Virus genome (UHGV): UHGV-1421865
DNA length: 64,000 nt
Reading direction: 5' to 3' (one strand)
From: a virus
How positions within the stretch are numbered: the stretch's first letter is position 1; every line of letters starts with the position of its first letter. Positions 30,484 to 61,630 of the stretch are shown one piece after another. The notes under the pieces were generated by a model. That model did no database searches, was not told where the DNA came from, and saw only the letters and a list, made by a program, of their open reading frames with translations. A program made the position numbers and the translations under genes.

Positions 30484-30519
30484 GACTGTAGCACTTTAAC
30501 TGTTTGACTTGTTTGTTAT

Positions 30520-30556
30520 ATATGTAATATAGCGTACTTTGTGAGCAAAATCAATA
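30520..30556 (-). promoter_or_regulatory. Sigma70-like promoter (TTGATT-N17-TATATT) with the conserved TCACAAAGTA spacer
   Basis: On the minus strand: TTGATTttgctcacaaagtacgcTATATT. Confidence 0.55.
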
Positions 30557-41449: not shown

Positions 41450-41487
41450 TATATATTATATAGTCTACTTTGTGAACAAAATCAGCA
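41450..41487 (-). promoter_or_regulatory. Sigma70-like promoter with the conserved spacer (cTGATT-N17-TATATAAT)
   Basis: On the minus strand: cTGATTttgttcacaaagtagacTATATAAT, upstream of the paralog array. Confidence 0.55.
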
Positions 41488-48900: not shown

Positions 48901-50710
48901 GGGTATACTTACATATAAGTTGGCTAATGGCCGTGAAGTTTACAGAGAAAGTCTTTTTAAGCGAATTACAGTGTCCAACGATGAACTGAAGCGTCCTCGA
49001 TTTATATCATTAGACCCCGAGAATATCGAAATCACAGCCGGTACATCTAAAGAAATAGGATATAAGATAACATCACATAAAGGTACAGATATTACCGACG
49101 GTCAACAAGATACTATAACTGTAAAGCCTAAAAACGCTGAAGATAACAGACTTGTCGACATTACTGTAATGTTGGGTGATAATAAAATACGAATAACACC
49201 GAAAGTTACAGATAAAAATAAAACTGTTACATTAGGCATTTATGACGCGGACGATCGCCTAGTAAGAAATTTTGACGTGAAAATTAAAGGTGTTCAGAGG
49301 CACGGTCTGATACTAAAAGAAGGTGTAAAAACGCCGCTTGTTTTGTTTAAGGACAATACTATAGACTATAATGATTTAGTAACTGTTACAAATCGTTACG
49401 GTAATGAGAAAGAAAACCTAGTAGTTACATCACAGGATTTCAAGTTGGGTGGAGCATCTACTAGTTACTATATAATTGGAGATGAAACAAAACGTGGTAC
49501 TATAACGGTCAGCCTTCCTGGTGACGATAGTATGTCCTTAGATATAGATGTTCAACAGTATAAACGACCTGAAGTAACAATCAATGAAGGCAATCAGACT
49601 ATATTCAGGGATGAAAAGAAGCGGTTTACAGTAACATATCATATAGATTCGGATAATATCGACGTGCGAACTCGAGATGAATTTAGGTATGAAATAGAAT
49701 GGTCTGTACGTAAAGAGTTTAATAAACCAATTATCGGTACTATAAATCAAAATACTGGTGAATTTATACCGCAGGCAGAAGGTGAATGTACAGTAGAAGC
49801 AACGGTAACACACTTTAAGCTTAACAACGTTATATATACTCAAACGATTACTAGAAAGGTAACAGTAAAGGCATCTGACAATGCGAATTATGTATTACGT
49901 GCTACACAACCAGTTAAAAAAGTGGAAATCAACCAATTTAATATAACTGATACAATTGGTGTATCTGCGGACGTTATCTTAACATCTACACGTAACGGTA
50001 ATTATGAAATACCTAGTGTTGAAGTAATAACTAATAACGGTGCTCCAAAATCAGCTATAAATTATTATTTAACACGAGTAGAAGGTACTAATAATTGTAA
50101 ATTAACAATAGCATCTGCGACACATTCTACTACAAATGGACAAAATCTAAAGGGTGCTACAGGTATTGTTAAATTAACATTAGGTAAGGGTAGTAGGAAT
50201 GAACAAAATGTAGAAATACCCTTTGTGAAGAACTACGACACACCACTTAACGGTATATATGCAGACGATAAGACCGTAGTAATACGTAATACAGATAAAG
50301 ACAAGTCTGCAACTATTAGCGGCACAATTCGTTATAGTGATAAAGTTAATAATGTTGTACAAAGAGATGCCAATGGTGTCGTAAGACCAGTGAGTAACTT
50401 ATATACTATAAATACAACACTGAATGAGTGGAACGAACGTAATCCTAATGACAACAAATGGAATGATTGGCAAATAGGTAAAATTAGTAGTGGTGATAGA
50501 TTTAGTATACCTGTATCAGTAATGTATCCGAATGAATCGACTGGTTATGAATCTAATATGAGAATCTACTCAGAGGTCGACCCGAACTGGTCTGCAGATG
50601 TACATTTAGTTTATTGGAGCGAAAACGGTGATAATTCACTTATCGAACCGACAGTATCACCTTCACCGGTACCGACGGGAGATACATCTGCGTCCACACC
50701 AAAACCATAA
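45905..50710 (+). CDS. Ig-like (BIG-type) tandem-repeat structural protein of 1601 aa
   Basis: About seven tandem domains of roughly 100 aa, each with the pattern IT(F)TTPRTLSAKS...VGTIHVNVTALPIRRI; the C-terminal remainder is beta-rich. Confidence 0.65.
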   Translation: MITNIDKFSNLRFITSSLNPLELIGKVLKDAQNSIIINTYGGHIGIFVCDGVGNIQRATAEFSNDFNIDGNVASISGAVNELKQQIKDLRDAFNKLSENGGNVHVPLITNPPLPKPVDVNLSTSNVVILGDEVAKVTITVRYDKNIRFDSDVITPSIHKKHSDIRTGLKLENRGSNTCQYTLTISKGDATVSNNTITVNVGDLHARLDVTVTRQNDVLAKITRLRVTPDKIVFNNDNQSAIIKVHKDLSAGTQNINQLKTEIISSSGITISKVEYSEQVDKYYVSASGGGGTVVFGVADRNWNPGVDNTSISITDNRTVVTPSVVPTPPTPKALRRISKVIVEGNTGIANSVQFKAGTVKTFKYTADYVGEQEDDYTNNIYIASKDGITVEVDKKTKTITFTTPRTLSAKSDVIFDVMSNNKVVGTIHVNVTALEIQRISSVRVNNGEPISITAGTDKKVSYEIVSYNGELPDNDTNNIEIASKDNINVTVNTKEKTITFHTERTLSAKQVDFDITSNNKVVDTIHVNVKALPLRRITKITVNTTNSVQFKAGTDTTVNYTVTYNGSPEDTISDNNTDNIEIASTPDVMVGINPVGKQIMFSTESNLGKKSVDFTVTSNGEIVGTVHVDVTAQEPRRISEVRVNDNKPVSITAGTDKKVSYDIIAYKGELPDNNTDNIEVVSPDSSITVKVDKTNKSITFTTPRTLSSQSHTFNVTCNGNKVGTVNVNITALPIRRITNVSVNGGRPVSLAAGDGTTVDYTVAYNGSSENTNSDNNTDNIEIVSKDNINVILDPRRKKITFRLSLDVISAKSVSFDIMSNGTKVGEVNVVLRYNIVLKNGLGENPMILVQNRRVALSDLAKITGTYGTLKYKSSVFALENLDNELQFTENENKQGTVTLYVKEDPTVEKSFTVKMYKASRAEIYADGKDLTSGVLRRDLPLQLATRFIDGGVTFFNDTNTFRKEVTWSVENVHGNTKVVDAIDQNGQFRVDNASEYNITGILTYKLANGREVYRESLFKRITVSNDELKRPRFISLDPENIEITAGTSKEIGYKITSHKGTDITDGQQDTITVKPKNAEDNRLVDITVMLGDNKIRITPKVTDKNKTVTLGIYDADDRLVRNFDVKIKGVQRHGLILKEGVKTPLVLFKDNTIDYNDLVTVTNRYGNEKENLVVTSQDFKLGGASTSYYIIGDETKRGTITVSLPGDDSMSLDIDVQQYKRPEVTINEGNQTIFRDEKKRFTVTYHIDSDNIDVRTRDEFRYEIEWSVRKEFNKPIIGTINQNTGEFIPQAEGECTVEATVTHFKLNNVIYTQTITRKVTVKASDNANYVLRATQPVKKVEINQFNITDTIGVSADVILTSTRNGNYEIPSVEVITNNGAPKSAINYYLTRVEGTNNCKLTIASATHSTTNGQNLKGATGIVKLTLGKGSRNEQNVEIPFVKNYDTPLNGIYADDKTVVIRNTDKDKSATISGTIRYSDKVNNVVQRDANGVVRPVSNLYTINTTLNEWNERNPNDNKWNDWQIGKISSGDRFSIPVSVMYPNESTGYESNMRIYSEVDPNWSADVHLVYWSENGDNSLIEPTVSPSPVPTGDTSASTPKP

Positions 50711-50720
50711 TGTACAGAAC

Positions 50721-51173
50721 ATGGGATTTGATATTAAAACGTTAAAACCGAATAAAAATGGTCGATATAAACAAGGTTATTTAGATAAATCACAATGTAA
50801 GAAATTAGTATGTGAAAATAATGAGCCTGTTATATATCGTTCCGGTCTGGAATTAAAGTTTATTAAATACTGTGAGACGAATCCGCTGATCAAACGTTGG
50901 GGGTCTGAAATAATCAAAATAGATTACTACAACCCCCTTCGTGAGAAGATGTGTGAGTATTTTCCGGATTATGTGATAGAACATACCGACGGGCAGAAGT
51001 TTATTGTTGAAATTAAACCGTACGAGCAAACCAAGAAGCCACGGAAGAAAGCGTCACAATGGTTGAAAGAGCAATATGTTATCAACGTTTCTAAATGGCG
51101 TGCAGCTCAGGCATACGCTACGGCAAATAACGTTAAGTTCGTTGTTGTCACAGAACGGTTCTTCGGTCACTGA
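50721..51173 (+). CDS. Possible PD-(D/E)xK-fold nuclease-like protein; start moved to the internal ATG
   Basis: FPDYVIEHTDGQKFIVEIKPYEQ looks like a D...E.K core. This is tentative. Confidence 0.35.
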   Translation: MGFDIKTLKPNKNGRYKQGYLDKSQCKKLVCENNEPVIYRSGLELKFIKYCETNPLIKRWGSEIIKIDYYNPLREKMCEYFPDYVIEHTDGQKFIVEIKPYEQTKKPRKKASQWLKEQYVINVSKWRAAQAYATANNVKFVVVTERFFGH

Positions 51174-55604: not shown

Positions 55605-55703
55605 TGGTATCTACAAGAATTGAACTTGTGACACACGGATTTTCAGTCCCACGCTCTGGTCAACTGCGTTGACTTACTTTGTCACCAACTGAGCTACATC
55701 ACC
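55605..55703 (-). pseudogene. Degenerate tRNA-Phe(GAA)-like locus with a 26-nt hairpin inserted in the D-loop
   Basis: Has GTAGCTCAGTTGGT...AGAGC, a CTGAAAA anticodon loop and a T arm ACAAG-ttcaatt-CTTGT. The acceptor strands and the anticodon stem do not pair. Confidence 0.35.
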
Positions 55704-55705
55704 GA

Positions 55706-55781
55706 TGGTTGCCTTGCAAGGATTCGAACCTCGACTATTTGAACCAAAATCAAATGTGCTAAACCATTACACCACAAGGCA
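55706..55781 (-). tRNA. tRNA-Gln(TTG), CCA encoded
   Basis: Acceptor TGCCTTG/CAAGGCA, anticodon arm TTTGA-ttttggt-TCAAA, T loop ttcgaat, 3' ACCA. Confidence 0.7.
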
Positions 55782-55885: not shown

Positions 55886-56022
55886 GGATCTTATAGTGTT
55901 CATGACCACATATAAGATCTGTACGATGAAAGGCTACACATCGCCATGTAAGATTTGTATTTTATACAAATCACCGACCGTTAGGCTATATTTTTATAAA
56001 AAATAGCTGTCGGGCACTGTCG

Positions 56023-56114: not shown

Positions 56115-56195
56115 ATAGTCCCAGGCCAGGATTCGAACCTGAATTTCGTCTCCAATGAGACGTGTATTAGCCTTTATACTAACTGAGTAATATAG
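56115..56195 (-). pseudogene. tRNA-like remnant: a T arm is present, but there is no foldable anticodon arm or 5' acceptor
   Basis: caggTTCGAATcctg T arm; the central segment forms a cgtctc-attg-gagacg mini-hairpin instead of an anticodon arm. Confidence 0.3.
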
Positions 56196-56955: not shown

Positions 56956-57027
56956 AGAGCTTCCTGTCAGAGTCGAACTGACAACCTCTTCATTACAAGT
57001 GAAGCGCACTGCCATTGTGCTAAGGAA
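56956..57027 (-). tRNA. tRNA-Thr(TGT)
   Basis: Acceptor GCTTCCT/AGGAAGC, anticodon arm CTTCA-cttgtaa-TGAAG, T arm GTCAG-ttcgact-CTGAC. Confidence 0.8.
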
Positions 57028-57147
57028 GCGAATGCTTCCAGTATATCACGTTAGTGACATTAAGGAAGCGAATGCTTCCAGTATATCACGTTAGTGACAT
57101 TAAGGAAGCGAATGCTTCCAGTATATCACGTTAGTGACATTAAGGAA
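57021..57147. repeat. 40-bp tandem direct repeat, 3.2 copies, starting inside the 5' end of tRNA-Thr
   Basis: Unit aggaagcgaatgcttccagtatatcacgttagtgacatta, three times and perfect. Each unit holds the palindrome ggaagc-gaat-gcttcc and a TATACT (-10-like) on the tRNA strand. Confidence 0.85.
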
Positions 57148-57215
57148 GCAGGTGTAGTCTAAATTAGACTTTGATTGTGGTGTAAAATCACGCTAATTAA
57201 ACTACATTCATTGAG

Positions 57216-57290: not shown

Positions 57291-57388
57291 ATGATGGTGG
57301 AAAAACGACTGCGCCCCACCTACGCAAGGTCTTCAAAGACCACCGACCGTGTTTTATAGTTAACTATAAAAGTAATCAGGTACTGTCG

Positions 57389-57488
57389 TGGACCAGGTAG
57401 GACTTGAACCTACGACTCTGGAAAACAAACTAGAGAAAGGAGGTTAAACTAGTGTGAATTCGGCTCTGGCCATCTGAGCTACTGGTCC
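57389..57488 (-). pseudogene. Interrupted or intron-like tRNA gene: acceptor, D and T arms are canonical, but the anticodon and variable region is 49 nt
   Basis: GGACCAG-TA-GCTC-agatggcca-GAGC and GTAGG-ttcaagt-CCTAC-CTGGTCC-A. No 17-nt anticodon arm can be folded. The insert carries an actag/ctagt stem and, on the opposite strand, AAGGAGGT followed by GTG then TGA. Confidence 0.45.
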
Positions 57489-58862: not shown

Positions 58863-58904
58863 ACTGTGTAATTTTTACTGGTCTTGTTTCTAACTTGATT
58901 TGTT

Positions 58905-58941
58905 ATATATTATATAGTCTACTTTATGAATAAAATCAACT
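58905..58941 (-). promoter_or_regulatory. Sigma70-like promoter with the conserved spacer
   Basis: On the minus strand: TTGATTttattcataaagtagacTATATAAT. Confidence 0.55.
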
Positions 58942-59111
58942 TATGTAGTACCAGAAGCGGGACTCATCGTACATGAAAATCTAAATCATTACATTTAGTT
59001 TTCACTTCTTGCTTCAATCTATCACTACTAATTGTAATCAATATCACAATCCCATAGGAGGATAGTCCACAAGCGTAAATTCGGTACTACGAATACCTAC
59101 TAGTTTTGTTC

Positions 59112-60251
59112 TTATACTGCACTTATCCTACGACCCTCGTAGAGGATATTTAGTGCTGCATTGTAATCTCTATCATGGTTTGTGCCACATTTAGGACAAC
59201 ACCAATAACGGTCTTGTAACTTCAAGTCATTGTGTACATAACCACATTGTGAACAAGTCTTTGAGCTGGGATAAAATCGATCAATAAGTACAACCTTCTT
59301 GTCGTTTTGTAAAGCCTTAGTTGATAGCACAGTCTTGAACTTAAAAAATCCAACTTCTTGGATTGCCTTGGCAAGTTTATGATTTTTCATCATCCCTTAT
59401 ACATTCAAGTCTTCCATGTAGACAGTATCATACTGTGACAATAACTCATTTACTACAGAATGTATATAGTTTTCCTTCTTATTCGTAATAGTCTCAAACA
59501 CTTTCGCTATCCTCTTACACTGTTTATAGAAGTTGTTTGAACCTTTACGTTTCCTCGACAACTGTCGTTGTAGCTTTACAAGTCGCTTTTCTTCTTTATT
59601 ATAGAAATGTTTGTTGTCAAATGTAGTGTCATCTGATGTTATAACAAAATCCTTAACACCTAGATCGATACCGACATCACGACCTGTTTTATTGAACTTA
59701 GTAAGTTCGTTATCATTCATATCAATAAGAATAGATAAGAAGAAATTCCCACTCTTGGTTTTCGATAAGGTTGCACTTCTTATATTGTTCTTATATCTAC
59801 GCAATCTTGCCAAGTACAAATCAGAACATCTAAATGATATGTCTTTTAATTTGGTTGTAAGTGTTATCTTACGTGTCACAAATGTATTTTTCTTGGATAT
59901 TGTACCTTTCGGGAACAACGCAGATTGGTTATTCTTCTTCGACTTGAACTTTGGAAACCCATTATGTTGTTTGAAGAATTTTTGGTAGCCACTATCCATT
60001 TGTCTAATAGCTTGATTCATTATCTTTGTATTCTGTTCCTTCAACCAAGCATATTGTTCATCTTTCAATAACTCATGATGAAAATGTTTGGATAGTTGAG
60101 TTGTTCCAAGATTTGTTTTATCTGTGTTATACGCTTCTTGTTTACGAGCAAGCATGTAGTTATAAACAAAACGATAACACCCAAGCACACTATTTAGTAC
60201 CTGTTCTTGTGTTTTATTTGGATATAACCTTATTTTGATTGCTCGTAACAT
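59112..60251 (-). pseudogene. tnpB: IS200/IS605-family tnpB (OMEGA / RNA-guided nuclease), interrupted by an in-frame TAA
   Basis: N-terminus MLRAIKIRLYPNKTQEQVLNSVLGCYRFVYN and GIDLGVKDF (RuvC-I) ...MEDLNV, then TAA, then in the same frame GMMKNHKLAKAIQEVGFFKF...CSQCG...CPKCG...HDRDYNAALNI (zinc finger plus RuvC-III). Hand translation confirms a single in-frame stop where a Lys codon is expected. Confidence 0.8.
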
Positions 60252-60293
60252 TGATTTCCTTATTTAACTACTTGATTGTTTACTGTTACTATT

Positions 60294-60382
60294 TGGTGCC
60301 CGAAGTGGGGGTCGAACCCACACGAACATTACTGTTCAAGAGATCCTAAATCTCTCATGTATACCAATTTCATCATTCGGGC
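60294..60382 (-). tRNA. tRNA-Leu(TAG), class II, CCA encoded
   Basis: Acceptor GCCCGAA/TTCGGGC, anticodon arm AGAGA-tttagga-TCTCT, variable-arm hairpin GAACA-gtaa-TGTTC, T arm GTGGG-ttcgacc-CCCAC, 3' ACCA. Confidence 0.8.
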
Positions 60383-61193: not shown

Positions 61194-61221
61194 AACCTAC
61201 TTGATTGTTTACTGTTACTAT

Positions 61222-61308
61222 TTGGTACCCGAAGTGGGGGTCGAACCCACATGGTCTACTGACCAAAAGATTTTAAATCTTTCATGTATACCGATTTCAT
61301 CATTCGGG
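61222..61308 (-). tRNA. tRNA-Leu(TAA), class II, CCA encoded
   Basis: A paralog of the tRNA at 60294 including about 30 bp of 3' flank. Anticodon arm AAAGA-tttaaaa-TCTTT. Confidence 0.75.
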
Positions 61309-61540: not shown

Positions 61541-61594
61541 GTGCAACCTACTTTAGAGTAGGTCTTGATTGCGTTACATACTTGATGTGTTACA

Positions 61595-61630
61595 TATCTA
61601 AAATAGTACACTTTATGAGAAAAATCAATG
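61595..61630 (-). promoter_or_regulatory. Sigma70-like promoter with the conserved spacer
   Basis: On the minus strand: TTGATTtttctcataaagtgtacTATTTTAG. Confidence 0.5.

Follow-up and report, generated by a model that had tools for sequence, protein, structure and literature searches.

A tnpB gene interrupted by a single in-frame stop codon next to an intact omega-RNA in the tRNA region of a human oral jumbo phage

The 64,000-nucleotide (nt) stretch of virus genome UHGV-1421865 analyzed here (the window) carries on its minus strand, at 59112 to 60251, a TnpB gene with a single in-frame TAA. Together with the structured omega-RNA encoded immediately downstream, this gene forms a tnpB-only OMEGA module, that is, TnpB plus omega-RNA, which was most probably inactivated in this strain by one recent nonsense mutation, CAA (Gln285) to TAA; the probability of this reading is estimated at roughly 0.8. 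The stop looks like an ordinary young nonsense allele, a case of gene loss rather than of programmed readthrough, and should therefore not be counted as a case of recoding.

The first open reading frame (ORF) of the element runs on the minus strand from an ATG at 60251 to a TAA at 59399..59397 and encodes 284 amino acids (aa). A second, 93-aa ORF lies in the same frame, starting at an ATG at 59393 and ending at the TAA at 59114..59112, so that a single GGG codon separates the internal TAA from that ATG; the local order is TAA GGG ATG ATG, with ATG codons 3 and 6 nt past the internal stop. Joined, the two ORFs make a tnpB reading of 379 codons with one internal stop, at codon 285, as the initial annotation had described them (two ORFs in one frame, split only by TAA). 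Codons 1 to 284 (59400..60251, minus strand) comprise the HTH/WED and REC regions, RuvC-I (D196), and RuvC-II (E280), and codons 286 to 379 with the natural stop (59112..59396, minus strand) comprise the CxxC...CxxC zinc finger (TNB) and RuvC-III (D362), as assigned from ORF calls, Pfam, and an alignment with ISDra2. Between them lies the in-frame TAA (59397..59399, minus strand), for which comparison with relatives indicates a G-to-A change on the plus strand at 59399.

The joined product was recognized as TnpB by profile searches and by alignment. The Pfam families HTH_OrfB_IS605, OrfB_IS605, and Cas12f1-like_TNB all matched above their cut-offs and spanned the junction, and the NCBIfam model guided_TnpB scored 302 bits (cut-off, 100). 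The product aligns end to end with the ISDra2 TnpB structures (8exa/8bf8; E = 2e-53), and in the same alignment D196, E280, and D362 fall on ISDra2 positions 191, 278, and 361, which we take to be the catalytic residues of that enzyme. The zinc-finger cysteines C333, C336, C352, and C355 are invariant across the family. Both the RuvC triad and the zinc finger were thus found, in agreement with the earlier claim that every catalytic region is present in the combined reading. In the window, however, TnpB is not encoded as a single chain: the frame is broken at codon 285, 5 codons past the RuvC-II glutamate. Translation in the window strain would end at this point, cutting off RuvC-III and the zinc finger, so that nuclease activity should be lost.

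The stop was found in several assemblies. The exact 284-aa ORF is present on 7-8 contigs, up to 223 kb long, from SPAdes, MEGAHIT, and Logan assemblies. The TAA-bearing contigs are 99.99-100% identical to the window and represent one near-clonal strain; for example, identity to the window is 100% for a human oral metagenome contig (ERR589709) and 99.99% for a 187-kb contig (ERZ772909). Less than 3 kb from the site, two of the TAA-bearing genomes differ from each other by a single-nucleotide polymorphism (SNP) and a 40-nt indel. Recovery of the same ORF in several assemblies and in at least two nonidentical genomes makes a random sequencing error, which the initial annotation had named as a finding that would overturn its interpretation, unlikely. 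A megablast search of the locus against deposited phages gave no match, no intact Q285 form of the strain's protein was found in a collection of 15 billion proteins, and a 39-nt pattern with N at the site had no match in JGI metagenomes or IMG/VR, the latter because the strain occurs only in ENA/Logan data.

To establish the ancestral codon, the gene was compared with its relatives. A protein search retrieved thousands of these, and the best 120 are all 379-382 aa long and are mostly located on contigs of 200-330 kb. Codon 285 is a sense codon in all 115 relatives of 379 aa (93 Ser, 19 Gln, 1 His, 1 Lys, and 1 Gly), which answers the earlier suggestion to look for a shared TAA in related phages: the stop occurs in 0 of the 115. 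The claim that TnpB homologs have Lys at this position did not hold up, given its occurrence in 1 of 115 sequences. The closest relatives (81-89% identity) all have Gln at 285. At the level of the gene DNA that was fetched, codon 285 is CAA in the related contigs L077, L084, and L085, as well as in the more distant L012, and AGT in L087. L077 and L085 carry syntenic orthologues, flanked by the same 127-aa and 118-aa genes and by tRNA-Leu, in phages of 205 and 216 kb. Because the closest genes read CAA, the change was a C-to-T transition, CAA (Gln285) to TAA. Thus, the recent nonsense mutation put forward initially remains the fitting interpretation, but not by the path AAA to TAA.

Substitution patterns place the stop late in the history of the gene. 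Pairwise ratios of nonsynonymous to synonymous substitution rates (dN/dS, or omega) among the five closest tnpB genes range from 0.12 to 0.21. Besides the stop, 15 synonymous and 5 nonsynonymous changes are unique to the window branch, and none of the nonsynonymous ones lies downstream of the stop. About 77% of changes would be nonsynonymous under neutrality (binomial P of about 1e-6; upper 95% bound of omega on the window branch, about 0.28), and dS to the nearest known relatives is about 0.44-0.54. A branch so dominated by synonymous changes implies that purifying selection acted nearly throughout the time since the split from the nearest relatives and that the stop is a late event. A low omega fits continued function equally well; the test therefore dates the mutation and leaves its effect undecided. 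Remnants of the family in other phages, N-terminal only in L042 and C-terminal only in L070 and L072, show that decay is the usual fate of tnpB in phages. The classic homing cycle predicts such decay once empty targets become rare.

The omega-RNA remains intact in the window strain despite the broken tnpB. Its scaffold, delineated by alignments, RNAalifold, and a fold z-score, occupies 58966..59100 on the minus strand, comprises five helices, and ends in ...CAUGUACGAU. Compared with L077, the scaffold of the window shows 1 difference in about 135 nt, whereas the coding sequences are about 89% identical. Altogether, 27 homologous scaffolds, including those next to tnpB genes of distant relatives, align up to ...CAUGUACGNU, where similarity ends abruptly after ...TACGNT. 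RNAalifold applied to these 27 copies yielded five helices with 24 pairs, 9 of which show compensatory changes. Paired cells amount to 98.9%, compared with 93.5% in shuffled alignments (0 of 500 reach the observed value) and with 33-65% when the partners are slid by 1-3 columns; the fold z-score of the window scaffold is -2.75. No second omega-RNA copy was detected in the window, either by BLAST or by a pattern search allowing 3 mismatches. The predicted omega-RNA downstream of tnpB is therefore present, but it extends from about 59100 to 58946 rather than filling all of 58863..59111.

Scaffolds were also found on their own. Stand-alone omega-RNA scaffolds with no adjoining tnpB lie in the tRNA arrays of relatives (L042:4066-4219, L012:4676-4840, and L077:12957-13098); they begin 3-25 nt past a tRNA gene, and those of L042 and L012 end 30 nt before tRNA-Glu. 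With such a tRNA/guide-RNA/tRNA layout, tRNA processing could free the guide RNA; alternatively, the stand-alone scaffolds may be leftovers of tnpB deletion. In addition, the 10-mer ACGGTCGGTG occurs in exactly 2 copies in the window, at 55972-55981 and 57341-57350 (both minus strand), each located 2-14 nt upstream of a site where a relative has a scaffold 3' end (the solo copy of L077 and the tnpB element of L084). The scaffold's own ending is ACGGU or ACGAU; the 10-mer may be a remnant or a recognition motif.

The guide that follows the scaffold derives from a tRNA gene. The guide segment, GAGTCCCGCTTCTGGTACTA, begins at 58965 and occupies 58946..58965 on the minus strand, its 20-nt length being assumed. 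Comparison with tRNA-Leu genes identifies it as a displaced tRNA-Leu 3' end, consisting of the 3' half of the T-loop/T-stem and the acceptor 3' strand. Against the tRNA-Leu(UAA) genes of L084 and L087, it agrees at 18 of 20 positions, including every one of the first 12, with GGGTTC just 5' of each match; the candidate target sequence is GAGTCCCGCTTCGGGTACCA. The origin of the segment is seen most completely in L085, where the scaffold is followed by GAGTCCCGCTTCGGACACCA and then by AATAGTAACAGTATACG..., that is, the 3' half of the T-loop/T-stem, the acceptor 3' strand, and the CCA of tRNA-Leu, and then by its native 3' flank. Past the guide, the window carries a shortened form of this L085-type tRNA-Leu flank, whereas in L077 the whole 75 nt of guide and flank are deleted. 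The rest of the stretch that is deleted in L077, at 58891..58945 (minus strand), consists by comparison of a decayed tRNA-Leu 3' flank and a promoter-like AT-rich motif, GTAGACTATATAATATATAAC, which recurs elsewhere in the window and here lies just ahead of the 118-aa gene.

The element is located in the middle of a tRNA cluster. The 16 Rfam tRNA matches (14 tRNAs by ARAGORN) are confined to 55.5-61.5 kb of the 64-kb window and surround tnpB, as expected from its initial placement inside a phage tRNA array. Directly upstream of tnpB lies an intact tRNA-Leu(UAG) (60294..60382, minus strand; ARAGORN; Rfam tRNA, 51.9 bits), separated from the ATG by a 42-nt spacer (60252..60293, minus strand) with the ribosome-binding site AAGGAAA. 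In the empty sites of L084 and L087, by comparison, tRNA-Leu(UAG) is followed by its flank and then by the 118-aa gene. Genomes with the insertion have a complete tRNA-Leu on the left of tnpB, and its 3' end is carried twice, a diverged copy (the 3' half of the T-arm, the acceptor 3' strand, and the flank) lying across the element; about 37 nt of this 3' end make up the diverged duplication. The left tRNA-Leu is followed by the flank type native to tRNA-Leu(UAA): the 30-nt stretch 60268-60297, after tRNA-Leu(UAG), is identical to 61197-61226, after tRNA-Leu(UAA), and includes the part of the spacer at 60268..60293 (equal to 61197..61222). The two tRNA-Leu genes are 88% identical over about 120 nt. 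The shared stretch and the similarity of the two genes suggest that the mosaic left junction of the tnpB insertion arose by gene conversion or duplication involving both tRNA-Leu loci. Both junctions are thus mosaics of two tRNA-Leu paralogues.

Within this tRNA region, tnpB occupies three different sites among the relatives. The tnpB genes of L084 and L087 lie at two other places than that of the window; one insertion replaces 51 nt and brings a tRNA-Lys-like fragment, and the other abuts the 5' part of tRNA-Thr. Copies at different sites have no more than about 13-20 nt in common ahead of the ATG, and no transposase-type left end is recognizable. Of the element ends that were to be defined, the right side could be fixed, at the end of the scaffold and the start of the guide at 58965, but the left end could be narrowed only to these 13-20 shared nt. 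Among 185,579 bacterial and archaeal species (one genome each), none gave an exact match to the tRNA-Leu 3' end, and the identity of their closest TnpB does not exceed 38%, so that both the target and the nuclease look phage restricted. Self-immunity of occupied genomes through compensatory T-stem changes was also considered and was ruled out, the T-arm of the empty-site genome L084 being the same as that of the window.

No transposase accompanies the gene. Neither a Y1_Tnp domain nor a serine transposase or resolvase was detected among the 84 window ORFs of at least 95 aa, in line with the initial report that tnpA is missing; no Y1 TnpA was found within ±10 kb on the source contig; and tblastn with IS607 TnpA was negative for the window and for L077-L088 (±6-10 kb fetched around tnpB). 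Conversely, TnpB relatives at 70-73% identity (L002, L014, and L062) sit directly behind an IS607-type serine transposase gene, the product of which matches the NCBIfam model "IS607 family transposase" with 195 bits (cut-off, 110). The window TnpB itself scores below the cut-offs of both family-specific NCBIfam models (IS200_TnpB, 355 bits with a cut-off of 425; IS607_TnpB, 173.5 bits). Assignment to IS200/IS605 is unjustified because there is no Y1 TnpA and end hairpins were not found. The solo-tnpB arrangement behind the initial label (IS200/IS605, IS1341 type) is real, but membership in the group is not borne out in the absence of a Y1 TnpA or a left-end hairpin. The most accurate label is a tnpB-only derivative of a clade with IS607-type autonomous members.

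The element shares with the TnpB/OMEGA system of ISDra2 (8exa, 8bf8, and 8h1j) the domain order, the D-E-D RuvC triad, the CxxC...CxxC zinc finger, and a structured RNA at the 3' end of the gene that is extended 3' into flanking DNA. It differs from ISDra2 in that the ORF is broken by TAA at codon 285, that the conserved scaffold begins past the stop codon without overlapping the 3' end of the ORF, that a Y1 TnpA and a recognizable left-end hairpin are absent, that it resides in a phage genome, and that its guide is derived from a tRNA. The likeness to IS607 lies in the L002, L014, and L062 relatives, which combine a serine transposase with the same omega-RNA scaffold; the difference is that this transposase was not found in the window or in the ±6-10 kb around the tnpB genes of the closest relatives. 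With IS1341-type elements, a group defined by arrangement alone, the module shares a tnpB without tnpA and a noncoding RNA on the 3' side, but here the left end does not exceed about 20 nt and tRNA-Leu paralogues are combined into mosaic junctions. Such features fit recombinational spread better than transposition by TnpA acting in trans. TnpB genes in phages, including huge phages, have already been reported (PMC12607003), and 440 deposited phage records with TnpB matches were found here.

TnpA-independent spread by TnpB has been described for IS605 on plasmids, and homing of the T4 SegB type has been described in phage tRNA regions (PMC13565253). In the cycle proposed for the present module, an intact TnpB would bind the structured RNA transcribed just downstream of its own gene and would be guided by whatever DNA adjoins the 3' side of the element, here the displaced tRNA-Leu 3' end. 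A co-infecting relative without the insertion would carry the same sequence intact in its tRNA-Leu, following the T-loop GGGTTC, and TnpB would cut there. Repair by recombination with the occupied genome would then introduce a copy of the element, which would amount to TnpA-independent homing. With a further copy of the tRNA 3' end to the left of the insertion, the occupied allele would still encode a functional tRNA-Leu. Given the lack of a transposase, the minimal left end, the mosaic junctions, the presence/absence pattern, and the match of the guide to the empty allele, TnpA-independent spread appears to fit best.

The pattern resembles that of T4 SegB and other free-standing homing endonucleases, in which a nuclease gene located in a phage tRNA cluster has its target in a tRNA gene of relatives (PMC13565253). 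As in those systems, presence/absence polymorphism exists among related genomes, the empty alleles of L084 and L087 retaining an intact target, and HNH genes occur in the same region of relatives. By contrast with SegB, recognition in the present case would be guided by RNA rather than by protein, and this copy is probably dead.

Several observations weigh against the view that the module was inactivated by a recent nonsense mutation or against the history proposed for it. The ORF is flawless apart from the stop and the omega-RNA is nearly unchanged, both of which are equally expected of a working gene. The ATGs 3 and 6 nt past the stop could permit re-initiation and hence a two-piece enzyme, and the tRNA-Gln(UUG) encoded by the phage is near-cognate for UAA. 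The searches for suppressor tRNAs and for other tnpB genes covered 64 kb of a genome of roughly 190-220 kb, and the 7-8 TAA-bearing contigs may not originate from independent people. The junctions are mosaics of paralogues and not clean insertions, so that homing is a step that we infer. Finally, no consistent target-adjacent motif (TAM) emerged over four empty/occupied junctions, the 5' nt of which are GGTTC, GGTC(T), TTCC, and TGTAT.

If the nonsense reading is wrong, TnpB may still be produced in two pieces, with re-initiation at one of the two ATGs and the 284-aa and 92- to 93-aa fragments joining on the omega-RNA into an at least partly active enzyme. This is unlikely, although it has some appeal: the TAA GGG ATG ATG order comes with a purine-rich AAGGG just upstream of the ATGs, gene callers in three sources called the 93- or 92-aa ORF, the downstream piece has accumulated no nonsynonymous change on the window branch, and the omega-RNA is intact. 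However, the Met-Met pair is an old conserved feature of the family (GMMKNHK) that did not evolve after the break, and AAGGG lies 0-3 nt from the ATGs, below normal Shine-Dalgarno spacing. The best 120 relatives are all single chain (379-382 aa), and truncated copies elsewhere (L042, L070, and L072) have no partner ORF. No natural split TnpB or Cas12 is known to us. An AlphaFold2 model of an intact orthologue (P0001; 25-sequence alignment) had a predicted local distance difference test (pLDDT) score of 48.9, too poor to judge a split at 285. It is similarly unlikely that TnpB is still made at all, either as a split two-chain enzyme or through low-level decoding of UAA by tRNA-Gln(UUG) that restores Gln; such a TnpB would cut the tRNA region of competing phages by means of the intact omega-RNA.

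Programmed or conditional readthrough, in which UAA-285 would be decoded usefully, either by a suppressor tRNA or by tRNA-Gln(UUG) or tRNA-Lys(UUU) of the phage itself, making TnpB expression conditional, had been offered initially as the other explanation and is now a distinctly improbable one. The phage does encode a tRNA-Gln(UUG) (55706..55781) and two tRNA-Lys(UUU) genes (ARAGORN), the family tolerates Ser, Gln, Lys, His, and Gly at position 285, and the array contains aberrant tRNA-like genes. The stop, however, is conserved in none of the relatives. The proposed scan of the tRNA array for a UUA-anticodon suppressor was run over the 64-kb window and detected none (ARAGORN with default settings, with introns, and with a relaxed threshold; Rfam with gathering and E-value thresholds), and none of the three aberrant tRNA-like genes shows UUA in a 7-nt loop. 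True stops in the phage are most often TAA, which ends 26 of 41 long ORFs, with the context TAAG in three cases; as the main terminator, it is a codon whose efficient suppression would extend most phage proteins and harm the phage's own proteome. No stimulatory structure was found at the stop, the 106 nt spanning it folding no better than shuffles (z = 0.21), and the basal rate at which bacteria read through UAA by near-cognate decoding is very low. Global recoding was rejected as well, as already anticipated in the initial annotation: treating any stop as sense only fuses ORFs, whereas the standard code accounts for every other long ORF, with long ORFs covering 88.5% of the window. Least probable of all is a sequencing or assembly artefact with a true base of C and an intact gene, for which one source contig at only about 5x coverage (NODE_12 ... 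cov_5.3) and the near identity of all carriers could be cited, against the three kinds of assembly, the 7-8 contigs, and the SNP and 40-nt indel between two genomes.

The case can be set beside stop-codon recoding in phages, where TAG or TGA is reassigned with the help of suppressor tRNAs, for example, in Lak phages, whose TnpB matches are also the best (53%) that deposited phage genomes gave. A large phage, its own tRNA set, and an in-frame stop are common to both. Here, however, one stop in one gene is concerned, it is TAA rather than TAG or TGA, and no suppressor tRNA was found in the window. A separate observation comes from a more distant phage with the same TnpB family, in which ARAGORN predicts at L021:10983-11071 a tRNA with anticodon CUA (a UAG suppressor, labeled "Pyl"), with a solo omega-RNA scaffold about 200 nt downstream of it; this phage may use recoded TAG.

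The window is phage DNA, as indicated by a T4-type portal and a large terminase. The nearest portal relatives, at no more than 40% identity, belong to Sphingomonas phage PAU, Tenacibaculum PTm1, Lak, and huge phages that are uncultivated. The phage is an uncultivated human oral jumbo phage with a genome of roughly 190-220 kb.

The tRNA region of this phage contains further unusual genes. In a tRNA-like gene at 57389-57488 (minus strand; Rfam tRNA, 42.7 bits), the acceptor, D, and T arms are normal, but the anticodon arm is swapped for a 45-nt imperfect hairpin. Its 15-nt loop, UUUAACCUCCUUUCU, is similar to the anti-Shine-Dalgarno sequence at the 3' end of 16S rRNA in Firmicutes. Each of the five related phage lineages compared (L077, L084, L086, L088, and the window strain) retains the loop core CCUCCUUU, to which L086 adds a U. 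An aberrant tRNA gene at 56118-56188 (minus strand) has a 6-nt anticodon loop, CAUUGG, which ARAGORN reports as anticodon "tt"; L077 has a solo omega-RNA at this place. Another one, at 55605-55703 (minus strand), is about 99 nt long (Rfam, 36 bits) with an apparent GAA anticodon and, judged by eye, a suggested insertion of ~26 nt in the D-loop region. Between tRNA-Thr and tRNA-His, at about 57021-57149, lies a ~40-nt tandem repeat of which the window has one unit more than the 99.99%-identical contig L079; this extra unit is the clearest sign that the TAA-bearing genomes are not all one assembly.

Other nuclease genes were found in and around the same region. A 134-aa gene, absent from the window, lies amid the tRNA genes of relatives (L084:3469-3873, L085:5057-5461, and L087:3369-3773); the copies in L084 and L085 have a weak HNH_3 match, suggestive of a homing endonuclease, and the L087 copy has no Pfam match. 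Selfish nuclease genes seem to have a hotspot in the tRNA region. Farther away in the window, a free-standing gene at 50610-51170 (plus strand), right after a 1601-aa ORF, encodes a domain similar to the N-terminal domain of the Tn7 TnsA endonuclease and is possibly another selfish nuclease. The AT-rich motif that borders the module is present at 58904-58938, 41450-41484, 30507-30554, and 61580-61628, upstream of several genes; the first of these copies, read on the minus strand as GTAGACTATATAATATATAAC, sits between the omega-RNA guide and the 118-aa gene, and the motif is probably a phage promoter element.

The stop itself matters little; its surroundings are more useful. They define a large phage-restricted clade in which a 379-aa TnpB, with an omega-RNA backed by covariation, is carried by metagenomic phages of 200-330 kb, the window strain being a human oral one. 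Insertions of this clade move within the phage tRNA region without a transposase and show signs of TnpA-independent spread. One of them splits tRNA-Leu at the T-loop, keeps a functional tRNA copy, and takes the displaced 3' end as its guide. The related genomes form a natural time series: L085 has an intact gene and guide, L077 has an intact gene with the ancestral guide deleted, and the window has a broken gene with an intact guide. The features of note are the tRNA-derived guide, the tRNA-preserving insertion, and the solo omega-RNAs wedged amid the tRNA genes of relatives. If TnpB-guided homing between co-infecting phages is true, it would be an RNA-guided counterpart of T4 SegB and would help to explain the mosaic tRNA arrays of phages.

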